A DNA stretch of 64,000 bases from Candidatus Cloacimonadales bacterium (GTDB lineage Bacteria; Cloacimonadota; Cloacimonadia; Cloacimonadales; JAFGVF01), in the NCBI GenBank assembly GCA_963678315.1, contig OY782781.1, positions 2,848,001 through 2,912,000 on the forward strand, in the 5' to 3' direction. Below, one piece after another: positions 26,731 through 34,249 of the stretch (its first letter is position 1; the number at the start of each line of letters is the position of its first letter). Below the pieces are notes generated by a model. The model ran no database searches. It was given only the letters and a program-made list of their open reading frames with translations, and was not told the origin of the DNA. The position numbers were made by a program, and so were the translations under genes.

Positions 26731-28637
26731 GTAGAGTAGAGACAGGTTTTCACCTGCCCCCCTCTTCAAACCGTGCATGCGGTTTTCCCGCACACGGCTT
26801 ACCGACAAAGTTCTTTCTAAGCTTTCACAAGTTTGTCAGGGTGTTCTGTATGCTAAGTTATATAGACCATAATACCTAATTAACTTGGCATGAGCATTTT
26901 GACGATAAAGCTTACAGCTCTTCTGACTCTTGCGTTTGTAATACCTCTTTAAACTAAAAAAGAGATATGTATTAACACTATCTTTGGCTTTAGCTGGGTA
27001 GCTTACTTTTGGTATTGTGAAGTAGTTAACCCAACCTCTTAATATGGGATTGAGTTTCTTTACTAAAGTATAATTAGATGAGTGTCCATTATTCATAAGA
27101 CAATGTTTTATATTTGCCTTGAACTTTTTGACACTCTTTTTACTTGGAATAACATTCCAGTAATAACCATACCAATTGTAAAAAGATTTATCAAACCTAA
27201 AAGTAAAACCTAAAAAGTCAAAGGATAGCTTTGTTGCATTCAAGTGTTTCGTTTTTTCCATGTTAATGGTTAATTCCATTTTCTCTAGTATTCTGTGTAA
27301 ATACGATAAGCATTCTTTAGGTATTTTATTTCCCATTAGGATAAAGTCATCAGCATAACGAACTATTTTTATGCCTCTTTTAGCGAAAAAATCCATCTTC
27401 TCTATTGACAGCTTTATCAACAAGATTTAAGTATATATTTGCTAGTAAAGGAGAAATAACGCCTCCTTGAGGTGTTCCCTTTTTACTCTTGTGCAATTTA
27501 TTCTTTTCAAAGTATGGTGCTTTTAACCACATTTTAATAAGTTTTAATACTCTTTTATCTGTTATTCTTCTTTCAACAAGATACATCAGTTTATCGTGTG
27601 GAATATTATCGAAATAACCTGATAAATCAGCATCATATACTTCTGTTTTTCCAGCCTTTAGATTAGACTTAATTTCCTTTATAGCTCCATGTGCTGAACG
27701 CTTTGGTCTGAAACCATGAGAACAATCTTCAAAGTCTGCTTCAAAGATTGGTTCTATTATTAGTTTACAACACATCTGAACAACTCTATCTTTGATAGTT
27801 GGAATTCCTAATGGTCTCATTTTACCATTTGCTTTTGGAATATATACTCGAAGTATTGGAGATGGTTTATAAGTTGCATCTTTTAGTTCTTGTTGAATTT
27901 CAAAGAGAAAGTCTGTTACTCCATATTCTTCAATATCAGAGAAACTCTTCTTATCATATCCTGCAATCCCATTGTTCAACTTCACCCTTCTCCAAGCTTC
28001 TGTTAGAAAATATCCCACTGTTAACTTATCATACAATACATAAAAACGAAAATCCTTTTCATGTTTGGCTTTAGAATATAATTTACGTTGAAAAATTCGA
28101 ACTCTTTCTTCAGCTGTTAAATCAGCCTTTCGTTTGCTTGTTAGATTTTCATCAATCACAACTTTCTCCTTATCTTGTAAATTTCTTTGAAGTAATGCCC
28201 CTTCGCTACTTTTGAGTTATGTTGTCTCAAATATCATCACTACTATGGGCATCTCCGACTGCCTAAATAACTGGATTTCACTTCGACACCGTCTTATAGA
28301 AATCCATTTAGGGTTGTCACCTCTTATTAAATAGGCTCTCTCACGTTTAATGTGCAATCGTTTATAAGCACGCCACCAGTTATAACTCCGGTAATCTTTG
28401 ATAGTGCATACTTCTGTTTCTTCCTATCAAATAGCAGGTTTCATCCTCTGGGAAAGATTAACCGATTACAATTGCCTAACGAAGCTACCTGTTCGCTTAC
28501 GCTACGGCTTACTTACCGATTCAAAGAGCTTCAAACTAAACATTACTGTATTAGTTTGTCTTTTTCACTTCTGGTTGAACAGAAAATTAACCAGACTGGA
28601 TTTTCACCAGTTGACGGCACACCACCTCGTGACGCAC
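26731..28637 (-). mobile_element. Group II intron (1907 nt), RT/maturase without endonuclease domain
   Basis: 5' GTGCG at 28637; domain V AAGCCGTGTGCGGGAAAACCGCATGCACGGTTT and domain VI ending CTCTACTCTAC at 26731; removing it restores the end of the 163-bp repeat. Confidence 0.92.
26836..28159 (-). pseudogene. ltrA: Group II intron reverse transcriptase/maturase, split by a one-base frameshift
   Basis: RPLGIPTIKDRV, GFRPKRS, GTPQGGVISPLLANIYL in the first ORF; RYADDF, FDFLGF, LNPILRGWVNYF in the second; frames join if one base of the 6-nt run at 27386-27391 is removed. Confidence 0.88.
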
Positions 28638-32990: not shown

Positions 32991-33239
32991 TTATATTTTT
33001 AAGCTTGTAGATTTTACATTTACTGATGAAATCTGCCCTAACTTACCAGTAAAAGCACCTAATTCATCGTTAGTTAAGTTGATAATTACAAATATAATTG
33101 AAACATTTTTATCTGGGAATGGGTAACCAACTCGCAGAACTATTGAGTCAGCTAAGTTATGAAGAATAGATGAGACTTTGCTGAATGAGCTCTCCCTATC
33201 ATGTACAGTAATCGTAACAGTTCTAATACTTTTTTCCAT
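32991..33239 (-). CDS. TM1266-family iron-only hydrogenase system putative regulator (ACT/NikR-C-like)
   Basis: About 82 aa; VSSILH...IVLRVGYP...GAFTGKLGQI..V.VKS; directly upstream of hydG. Confidence 0.8.
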   Translation of the reverse strand: MEKSIRTVTITVHDRESSFSKVSSILHNLADSIVLRVGYPFPDKNVSIIFVIINLTNDELGAFTGKLGQISSVNVKSTSLKI

Positions 33240-33371
33240 AAAAAAACTCCACCACAAGGGTGGAGCTAAAATTTATATAATAATCCTATTATAATCTTGG
33301 CTTATCTCCATCCCTTGAACTTAGTAATATTTACCTTAATCTCAGGATTTTGTAATTCTTTATAATCCAAG
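33240..33371 (-). promoter_or_regulatory. Structured 5' leader with terminator/SD-sequestering hairpin (candidate riboswitch or attenuator)
   Basis: CTCCACC/GGTGGAG stem + T7 directly before the ATG; upstream GGGATGGAG is complementary to CTCCACCC; enclosing helix 33362-33371 with 33296-33305. Confidence 0.6.
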
Positions 33372-33478
33372 CAAGCAGATGTTATTCCTTTTACTTCGAT
33401 TTATTATTAAATTAATTTATTAAGTTTAAATGTCAATATTTATTTTATCGATTTCGATAATTATGAAGCTTTTACTAT

Positions 33479-34249
33479 CTACCAACCTGTTACTAGCAAC
33501 CTTTTGGCTGCATTAAGTCCACATTTCTGATATTTATGATAGGCTTGAGCTGCTCTAAGCCTAATTTCCTCATTAGTCTCACCAAGAATCCAGCCATCAA
33601 GAGCACTCTTTAATGTATATGCTTCTGGAGCCATATAACCTGTAGTCCATAACAGAGGGAAAGCACCAGTTTTTCTGAGATTCTCATTAAAATATATCTT
33701 ACTTTTACATGACAAGATAATAGTTTCAATATTGTTTGTTATGTTTTCATTCATATTACAATTTATTTGAAATTCCATTAATCCATCATGCCCAATATAA
33801 GCCACTAAATCTGACTTACCACCAAATGCTATATTAGTAGAATCTACAACAATAGATGTATCAAAATTCTTGTTTGAAGCATACATAAAATCGCTTATAG
33901 CCTCTTTAATATATCTTCCATCATAGGCATCTGCTAAAAGATAGGTTCCGCTATCCTTATGCTTAAAAACAATGCGTTCTAACACATGTTTCTTGGGATC
34001 TTTAATCGTTTGAAAAAGTTCCCATTCGTCACTTCTTTTGAAATAAGTTTTTACTCCATACAAAGCTCCCCAATACATGTTGTTCCTGGCATCTTGTCCA
34101 TTTCCAATCAATTCCGGGACTGGAATTATACCTTGATGAACATTGTCACAAAGTGCGACAAATACATGAATTTTACGGTATTCTCCAGCCTTAAGAATAG
34201 AAGGGACTAGAAGCAACATTACTATAACAAACCAAAACATTTTCTTCAT
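33479..34249 (-). CDS. Secreted hypothetical protein
   Basis: Signal peptide, AGGAG RBS; HVFVALCDN..QGI.PVP..IGNG, YIGHDGLM motifs. Confidence 0.7.
   Translation of the reverse strand: MKKMFWFVIVMLLLVPSILKAGEYRKIHVFVALCDNVHQGIIPVPELIGNGQDARNNMYWGALYGVKTYFKRSDEWELFQTIKDPKKHVLERIVFKHKDSGTYLLADAYDGRYIKEAISDFMYASNKNFDTSIVVDSTNIAFGGKSDLVAYIGHDGLMEFQINCNMNENITNNIETIILSCKSKIYFNENLRKTGAFPLLWTTGYMAPEAYTLKSALDGWILGETNEEIRLRAAQAYHKYQKCGLNAAKRLLVTGW

Follow-up and report, generated by a model that had tools for sequence, protein, structure and literature searches.

The leader of the TM1266-hydG operon

The sequence analyzed here, referred to as the window, is a stretch of 64,000 nucleotides (nt) from a Candidatus Cloacimonadales bacterium (GenBank assembly GCA_963678315.1, contig OY782781.1, positions 2,848,001 to 2,912,000; the coordinates below are those of the window). 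On its minus strand, a TM1266-family gene is followed by hydG, and the two are preceded by a leader that measures ~190 nt from a TTGACA box to the ATG of TM1266 at 33239. This leader contains a conserved, apparently undescribed cis-regulatory RNA of [FeFe]-hydrogenase maturation genes that probably acts as an off-switch. The features of the locus are as follows, all on the minus strand.

33436-33431, minus strand: candidate -35 box TTGACA, read from the sequence, with an uncertain -10 box
33371-33362, minus strand: 5' arm CTTGGATTAT of an outer helix whose partner is 33305-33296, not conserved and excluded from the element
33346-33312, minus strand: conserved sensor hairpin of 35 nt, from covariance models R1, R2, and R3, covariation, and symmetry
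33317-33305, minus strand: antiterminator strand CAAGGGAUGGAGA, made up of the hairpin 3' strand and a purine tail, from duplex energy
33267-33245, minus strand: intrinsic terminator stem-loop AGCUCCACC-CUUGU-GGUGGAGUU, from a terminator scan
33253-33247, minus strand: Shine-Dalgarno (SD) sequence GGUGGAG within the terminator 3' arm, read from the sequence
33246-33240, minus strand: U7 tract of the terminator, abutting the start codon, from the sequence and the terminator scan
33239-32991, minus strand: TM1266-family gene of 82 amino acids (aa), type A (LRVGYP), encoding the candidate trans-acting factor, from TIGR03959
32963-31551, minus strand: hydG, the downstream gene of the operon, encoding the radical S-adenosylmethionine (SAM) maturase of the H-cluster, from TIGR03955

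An earlier reading of the window, made from its letters alone (here referred to as the sequence-only reading), had proposed a riboswitch-like leader for these two genes. Both of its gene calls are borne out by family models: the TM1266 protein scores 85.4 bits against TIGR03959 (cutoff, 60.8 bits) and 88.7 bits against PF21699 (cutoff, 27 bits), and HydG scores 515 bits against TIGR03955 (cutoff, 312 bits). The TTGACA with which that reading began the leader is present in the sequence at the position given, and it is kept 43 to 94 nt 5' of the conserved hairpin in all 11 family-level loci compared, the window's included. It is missing from the list produced by a promoter scan, in which the number of promoters was not above chance (7 found, 8.9 expected). 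At the other end of the leader, CTCCACC-CTTGT-GGTGGAG-T7-ATG had been described as both an intrinsic terminator and a stem that sequesters the SD, and this description holds. The full DNA form is AGCTCCACC-CTTGT-GGTGGAGTT followed by seven T residues and the start codon; the terminator scan found one site (0.4 expected), which is this one; the GC-rich stem alone is worth -13.2 kcal/mol and runs into the U tract; and the SD lies in its 3' arm. Of 200 dinucleotide shuffles of the whole leader, 199 fold less well than the leader itself (z = -2.65), and a BLAST search of the leader against its own genome did not find a second copy.

The sequence-only reading had been unable to match the leader to the TPP, SAM-I, T-box, Moco, fluoride, or cobalamin consensus, and database searches gave no known family. 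When the window was compared with Rfam 15 at the gathering score, only group II intron matches were returned, and these lie elsewhere. With permissive filters and E <= 10, positions 33150-33520 gave 12 matches, all of them far below their thresholds; the best of the 12 sits on the terminator and reaches 21.9 bits, against 55 for Phe_leader. Twenty diverse homologous loci likewise gave no Rfam 15 match at the gathering score. Literature searches returned no description of an RNA element for TM1266 or hydEFG, and a paper that deals with hyd operons (PMC11736057) uses none of the words regulator, TM1266, and riboswitch in its accessible parts. The group II intron, also on the minus strand, is represented by its domains D1-D4 at 28477-28613 (64.2 bits) and its catalytic domain at 26731-26802 (56.8 bits).

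The sensor is a short hairpin with two nearly identical strands

Among 27 loci, the motif spans ~35 nt and reads CCUGAGAU.AAGG-loop-.CU.A.AUCAAGGG. In an initial 10-pair model of these 27 sequences, paired cells amounted to 95.5%, a value that fell to 86.4% for shuffled sequences and to 61.9% or less in slid registers, and double-sided changes were seen in 4 of the 10 pairs. Once Thermotogota variants had been added, the first C of CCU was found to covary with the third G of AAGGG (C-G in 50 and U-A in 9 of 59 sequences), and because of this covariation a symmetric register of 14 positions could be fixed. It replaces a register that paired CCU with AGG, which in the window is also 3.4 kcal/mol worse. 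The same 59 sequences contain further double changes (A-U/G-C/U-A, 41/12/5; A-U/G-C, 44/10; G-C/C-G/U-A, 50/2/2); all such counts refer to related sequences and not to independent events.

In this register, the helix has the consensus CCUGAGAUGAAGGA-loop-UCUGACAUCAAGGG and contains two tandem purine-purine loops and two conserved G.U pairs, in the order C-G, C-G, U.G, G.A, A.A, G-C, A-U, U-A, G-C, A.A, A.G, G.U, G-C, A-U. When each strand is read 5' to 3', the two agree at a mean of 8.8 of 14 positions, versus 3.3 in other registers, and the consensus halves are direct repeats that are identical at 10 of 14 positions. Since the strands are nearly the same word, the helix approaches two-fold symmetry, with a pair of equivalent GA/AA loops that lie four base pairs apart, each beside a conserved G.U pair. 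The copy in the window deviates from the consensus in having GAUU/GUUC with a U-U mismatch and an apical stem that is longer by two A-U pairs.

The inner hairpin that the sequence-only reading saw beginning with CCTGAG is present, at 33346, but its pairing is CCU with GGG and not CCTGAG with TTCAAGG. Less remains of the outer helix CTTGGATTAT/ATAAGCCAAG (33371-33362 with 33305-33296) in which that reading enclosed it. The outer helix can form (-5.9 kcal/mol) but is absent from minimum-energy folds, and it was dropped as a part of the element: 10 close relatives share no conserved equivalent of it, their flanks pairing only through different, non-homologous AU-rich stretches. The conserved sensor is the inner hairpin alone. 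Two other candidate structures were also rejected. A kink-turn is ruled out by the internal loops, which are 2x2 (G.A plus A.A) and have no bulge in the alignments. As for a leader peptide, the AUG in GGGAUGG is not conserved, and a short open reading frame (ORF) with its own SD occurs in one Thermotogota clade only.

The hairpin competes with a terminator or an SD-sequestering stem

The 3' strand of the hairpin and the purine tail behind it (CAAGGGAUGGAGA, 33317-33305) can form a duplex of -17.8 kcal/mol with GCUCCACCCUUGU (33266-33254). The sequence-only reading had already located the pairing segments GGGATGGAG (33314-33306) and CTCCACCC (33265-33258) correctly, and its claim that the two folds are mutually exclusive is upheld; the hairpin with the terminator amounts to -26.3 kcal/mol and the antiterminator to -25.7 kcal/mol, so that the two states are near-isoenergetic. 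The hairpin alone is weak (-5.2 kcal/mol). Before the 3' arm of the terminator has been transcribed, the antiterminator is the minimum-energy fold (-21.1 kcal/mol).

We compared 67 distinct leaders in this respect. A U-tract terminator stands beside the start codon in 30 of them, and in every one of these 30 the best complement of the hairpin 3' strand and tail overlaps the terminator 5' arm. In the 37 leaders that have no U tract, the complement overlaps the 5' arm of the last hairpin in 30, and SD-like purines are present in the 3' arm of that hairpin in 35. A competing complement, as expected of an attenuator or a riboswitch expression platform, is found in 60 of the 67 leaders. The duplex energy was -13.65 kcal/mol when the tail of a leader was paired with the downstream region of that leader, -11.44 kcal/mol for crossed pairs, and -9.2 kcal/mol for shuffled tails; given that the relatives are not independent, these differences lend modest support to the switch pairing.

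Because the partner of the 3' strand is the 5' arm of either the terminator or the SD-sequestering hairpin, the folded hairpin should correspond to the OFF state. An open hairpin would permit the antiterminator and thus expression, and stabilization of the hairpin would therefore repress, by the same logic in all leaders. Judged from these sequences, the leader is best explained as an attenuator that belongs to a new family of RNAs, one specific to [FeFe]-hydrogenase maturation genes. The hairpin probably turns off the genes that build the H-cluster, most likely on binding of TM1266. The idea of an uncharacterized switch for hydrogenase maturation, put forward in the sequence-only reading, is supported, and none of the outcomes that this reading had named as refuting it was observed.

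The motif is conserved upstream of TM1266 genes in several phyla

We built three successive covariance models, of which R1 was the first and R3 the final one. In the window, R3 gives a single match at 33352-33302 (45.2 bits, E 2.3e-10), and in the 2.99-Mb genome, R1 gives one strong match (54.2 bits, E 2.2e-14) with a runner-up of 16.7 bits. TIGR03959 matches 31 of 41 related genomes, 29 of them above the cutoff. Among 28 loci confirmed by tblastn, the window's copy included, the motif is upstream of TM1266 in 27; the exception (L010) encodes a protein that is only 39% identical. A scan of one genome per species placed the motif just upstream in 51 of 53 TM1266 loci (52 matches, one locus having two), and a count over 85 loci gave 80. 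Conservation upstream of TM1266 orthologs, on which the sequence-only reading had made its proposal depend, is therefore seen in each of these sets.

According to their record titles, the 51 motif-bearing loci include Neomarinimicrobiota, Fidelibacterota, Ignavibacteria(ceae), Marinitoga lauensis, and Thermotogae. By the same titles, conservation of the element extends over no fewer than five phyla, among them Cloacimonadota and Thermotogota. The TM1266 loci of Opitutaceae and Omnitrophota in the 53-locus scan carry no motif. An exact-pattern scan of metagenome contigs found 48 loci, and in 44 of these TM1266 begins 89 to 121 nt past the start of the motif; in two of the remainder the DNA past the motif is too short, and in the other two it holds a different ORF or none.

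Two weak model matches were discarded. The match in G028 is false and lies inside a coding region, and no ORF of 50 aa or more follows the match in G090:C62 on the motif strand within its 1.5-kb piece. Another weak motif-like match (28.5 bits; L075:721-768, in G064:C18) stands 323 nt before a 788-aa ORF for a pyrophosphatase-like membrane protein and is unlinked to hyd genes. The motif occurs twice, ~2 kb apart, at L083:305-2444 and on the metagenome contig that holds L186 and L187, with genes of 348 aa and 265 aa between the copies; this doubling would fit an insertion into the leader in the course of which the hairpin was duplicated.

The motif precedes different hyd operons

In addition to the TM1266-hydG operon, the motif is found in Thermotogota before hydA-TM1266-hydG (L149, L150, and L154), before hydE-TM1266-hydG (L155), and before hydF together with an aspartase-like (aspA) gene (L140 and L152). 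In L152, the hairpin 3' strand doubles as the SD of hydF. At two loci (L144 and L145), the motif precedes hydG, an 89-aa ORF, hydE, hydF, and the aspA-like gene, and TM1266 lies elsewhere in the genome. Some Thermotogota genomes have two motif matches. The only clear association with genes other than hyd genes is in G227 (L148:1987-4630), a genome of 1.4 Mb that yielded no match for TM1266 or for hydG; there, the motif and a short ORF stand before an ATP-binding cassette (ABC) transporter with an NMT1-like binding protein.

In one Thermotogota clade (L146, L147, L148, L151, and L153), the 3' strand of the hairpin reads GAGGAGGUUAAAGAUG, which supplies a short leader ORF, encoding a non-conserved peptide, with both a strong SD and its AUG. 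This arrangement suggests that the clade has a translation-coupled variant of the switch. The ORF between hydG and hydE is conserved in Thermotogota at a length of 84 to 94 aa (L144:1772-2041, plus strand; also L145, L146, L147, and L151), and a search of Pfam gave no family match for it.

The motif tracks TM1266 and not hydG

We next compared the presence of the RNA with that of the two genes in a sample of 151 Cloacimonadota genomes, counting RNA matches at E <= 1e-3 and TM1266 matches at E <= 1e-10. The RNA was present in 95 genomes, TM1266 was present in 95, and both were present in 92. The three genomes with RNA only comprise the false match of G028, one genome in which TM1266 is cut by a contig end (G083), and one in which a remnant of TM1266 is left (G087). 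The three with TM1266 only comprise one in which R3 found a divergent motif (G041) and two that have none (G027 and G117). In a second sample, consisting of 101 genomes of Thermotogota, the phylum of the Marinitoga genome, the RNA was present in 63, TM1266 in 68, and both in 61; R3 recovered the motif in four of five rescanned genomes that had TM1266 only. The co-occurrence expected of protein-mediated attenuation is thus observed, with TM1266 in 92 of 95 RNA-bearing Cloacimonadota genomes and in 61 of 63 RNA-bearing Thermotogota genomes, as counted before the exceptions were resolved.

The gene for the maturase is more widespread, with hydG in 106 of the 151 Cloacimonadota genomes and 73 of the 101 Thermotogota genomes. 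In the five Thermotogota genomes that have hydG and lack TM1266, R2 found no motif (0/5) and R3 found none at E < 0.01; two weak R3 matches in these genomes lie on contigs other than that of hydG. Only 1 of the 14 Cloacimonadota genomes with hydG and without TM1266 has a real motif, and this is G087, the genome with the remnant; six of the 14 were rescanned with R3 (0 matches), and the rest were scanned with R1 only. We also examined ten Thermotogota genomes in which the motif does not adjoin TM1266. Eight of them (G166, G182, G202, G242, G243, G245, G254, and G256) have TM1266 elsewhere, and the other two (G227 and G231) have no TM1266 or hydG matches and may be incomplete. Across the two samples, the motif is thus found to track the TM1266 gene and not hydG.

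The TM1266 family splits into two forms by the second strand of the protein, and the first of these, here referred to as type A, has R[VILT]G[YF]P in that strand. The motif is upstream of all 83 distinct type A proteins, within 200 nt for 80 of them and ~1.9 kb away, behind hydA, for the other 3. An attempt to relate protein subtype to the presence of the RNA over whole genomes gave no clean covariation, as genomes that have only the second form, type B (R[MLV]G[ILVM]P), may have or lack the motif. Loci encoding a TM1266 subtype with GRMG[IL]P (L009, L010, L130, L131, and L212-L220) never have the motif upstream; at two of these (L009 and L010), a different leader with a strong terminator precedes the gene and may represent a second leader class. 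Most related genomes also contain, elsewhere, a weak second TM1266-like ORF (E 1e-4 to 1e-9, below the cutoff; for example, G000:C1:75883-76101).

TM1266 is a small ACT-like protein predicted to form a two-fold dimer

The TM1266 protein of the window matches PDB entry 2nzc (TM1266 of Thermotoga maritima) with E 3.5e-22 over 81 residues. This entry has 4 chains and was deposited as a "Hypothetical protein" with no function attached. Our predicted model has a beta-alpha-beta-beta-alpha-beta fold (predicted local distance difference test [pLDDT], 92.4) and superposes on 2nzc with a template-modeling (TM) score of 0.93 and 49% identity in the structural alignment. Both the fold and the score above the curated cutoff are those of the TM1266 family. 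The next structural neighbors are ACT domains and the C-domains of NikR, and a more distant one is the RNA-binding ribosomal protein S6 (Foldseek, 1g1x_A, E 3.5e-4, TM 0.71).

In a homodimer prediction, the protein scored 0.52, compared with 0.00 for the best control. Of 30 proteins whose solved structures are pairs, 20 attained this mark, as did 1 of 23 whose solved structures are single chains. The contacts agree to at least 93% between runs, with a pLDDT of at least 82 and an interface that is predicted to be two-fold and sheet to sheet. This result may stem from likeness to the solved structure, given that 2nzc has 4 chains.

A model for control of H-cluster maturation

We propose that, during transcription, the 35-nt hairpin would form first, and that its 3' strand (CAAGGG and the purine tail) could alternatively pair with the 5' arm of the terminator or, elsewhere, of the hairpin that hides the SD. 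By default, the weak hairpin would lose to the antiterminator, and TM1266-hydG would be expressed. A factor that locks the hairpin would allow the terminator to form and the SD to be buried, turning the operon off. This factor would be TM1266 itself, whose ACT/NikR-C-like and predicted two-fold symmetric dimer would bind the near-symmetric helix with its two GA/AA loops, and this binding would probably be governed by a small molecule on the protein. The outcome would be feedback control of H-cluster maturation, autoregulatory wherever TM1266 sits in the operon. We hold TM1266-mediated attenuation with moderate confidence and favor it over a protein-free riboswitch, drawing on the phyletic pattern and the predicted dimer. 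That a symmetric dimer meets a symmetric RNA helix is an attractive notion that we only infer.

Protein-mediated attenuation has precedents in PyrR on the Bacillus subtilis pyr operon, TRAP on the trp leader, and HutP on hut. In these systems, as proposed here, a leader hairpin overlaps an antiterminator and the terminator forms when a small regulatory protein is bound; the protein is often encoded in the operon and governed by a metabolite, resulting in negative feedback. The present case differs in that a pseudo-symmetric helix of 14 pairs takes the place of a PyrR binding loop or GAG/UAG repeats as the proposed site, and in that the candidate protein has an ACT/NikR-C-like fold, which to our knowledge is not known from an attenuation protein. 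NikR itself carries a DNA-binding domain, and TM1266 is without one. Autoregulatory leaders of ribosomal proteins, such as the S6:S18 leader, are similar in that the mRNA leader carries a short conserved hairpin to which its own product, a small protein of ferredoxin-like fold, binds, such binding being what we propose for TM1266. There is no sequence relation, and the present motif has hydrogenase maturation as its regulon and a terminator/antiterminator as its platform.

Several observations weigh against the view that TM1266 is the effector. With respect to the protein, the conserved RVGYP strand is buried in the predicted dimer interface and not exposed, and TM1266, judged from its sequence, is only slightly basic. 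With respect to the phyletic pattern, the motif is directly upstream of TM1266 in most Cloacimonadota, so that joint loss could reflect physical linkage, and the five Thermotogota genomes with hydG and without TM1266 may be a single clade. In G087, which is 99% complete, the motif lies directly before hydG (L073:771-2338), although only a C-terminal remnant of TM1266 is left. None of the 13 type B proteins has the motif in its locus, and five genomes in which type B is the only form (G027, G117, G021, G237, and G162) lack any motif. Finally, the occurrence of terminator-type and SD-type platforms together is equally typical of metabolite riboswitches.

Alternative explanations

The last of these points leads to the explanation that competes best with attenuation by TM1266, namely, that the hairpin is a protein-free riboswitch that binds one or two small molecules or metal ions tied to H-cluster assembly, such as an intermediate, by-product, or substrate; the bound ligand would lock the hairpin and so terminate transcription or block translation. 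The sensor is small and highly conserved and is joined to two kinds of expression platform; it is found before several different hyd operons, sometimes twice per genome; and in one case it precedes the NMT1-like ABC transporter. It is kept before hydG where TM1266 has decayed (G087), and the TM1266 encoded elsewhere in the same genome can be of either subtype. Tandem G.A and G.U sites are frequent ion-binding sites. In size (~35 nt), in the use of a terminator or SD platform, in its position before the genes of one pathway, and in its spread over several phyla, the motif resembles the preQ1-I and guanidine-II riboswitches. Unlike these, however, it has no Rfam 15 match and no pseudoknot or loop-loop architecture, is nearly two-fold symmetric, and follows the TM1266 gene rather than the genes of the pathway. 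A sensor of a pathway metabolite would not be expected to be missing where hydG occurs without TM1266 (0/5 and 1/14), and the phyletic pattern thus argues mildly against a metabolite riboswitch. The near-invariant stems of a simple symmetric helix without junction or pseudoknot are more like a protein site, the hairpin alone is merely -5.2 kcal/mol, and a polarity in which the ligand turns the operon off does not suit a needed substrate such as Fe2+. We therefore regard a protein-free riboswitch as possible but somewhat unlikely. A more specific version, a stand-alone riboswitch of a new class in which the GA/AA loops beside the G.U pairs form two equivalent pockets for a molecule or metal specific to H-cluster assembly, would be more doubtful still.

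Alternatively, the hairpin might be bound by another trans-acting factor, such as a different hyd protein (the 89-aa protein or HydF), a CsrA-like global regulator that binds GGA, or a small RNA, and TM1266 would then be a co-regulated passenger. The motif contains two AAGG(A/G) elements, which resemble CsrA sites, and the type B TM1266 genes are unlinked to the motif. Against such a factor, there is one copy per genome with a restriction to hyd genes, and the CCUGAGAUG part of the motif is as strongly conserved as the GGA parts. The 89-aa ORF was seen in Thermotogota loci only, its absence from Cloacimonadota genomes not having been searched for. We consider this explanation improbable.

A DNA operator, in which a transcription factor would bind the repeated half-sites in double-stranded DNA and the RNA fold would be incidental, could account for the direct repeats (10/14) and for their position downstream of the promoter-like TTGACA. 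The two conserved G.U pairs and the compensatory changes make sense in RNA only, however, and the motif always faces the gene in one orientation, its tail covaries with the terminator arm, and the distance to TTGACA varies from 43 to 94 nt, all of which makes an operator very improbable. That there is no switch at all, only an ordinary terminator or SD hairpin with upstream similarity due to shared ancestry, is scarcely credible in view of the conservation of the element in at least five phyla (by record titles), the covariation, and the competing complement in 60 of 67 leaders. Even taken jointly, these last two explanations retain only a slight probability.

Significance

The structure of TM1266 was solved in 2006 (PDB 2nzc), and family libraries still say only "putative regulator"; for the machinery that builds the H-cluster, our literature searches found no description of how bacterial HydE, HydF, and HydG are regulated. 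A leader RNA present in several phyla offers a testable handle on both the regulation of hydEFG and the function of TM1266. If TM1266 does bind the RNA, an ACT-like fold would be acting as an RNA-binding attenuation protein. If it does not, the leader would represent a riboswitch of a new class, with a ligand indicative of cofactor assembly, and a stand-alone riboswitch of this kind would be the first RNA sensor for hydrogenase cofactor biogenesis. With either outcome, the leader would provide a natural off-switch for the engineering of hydrogen-producing strains.

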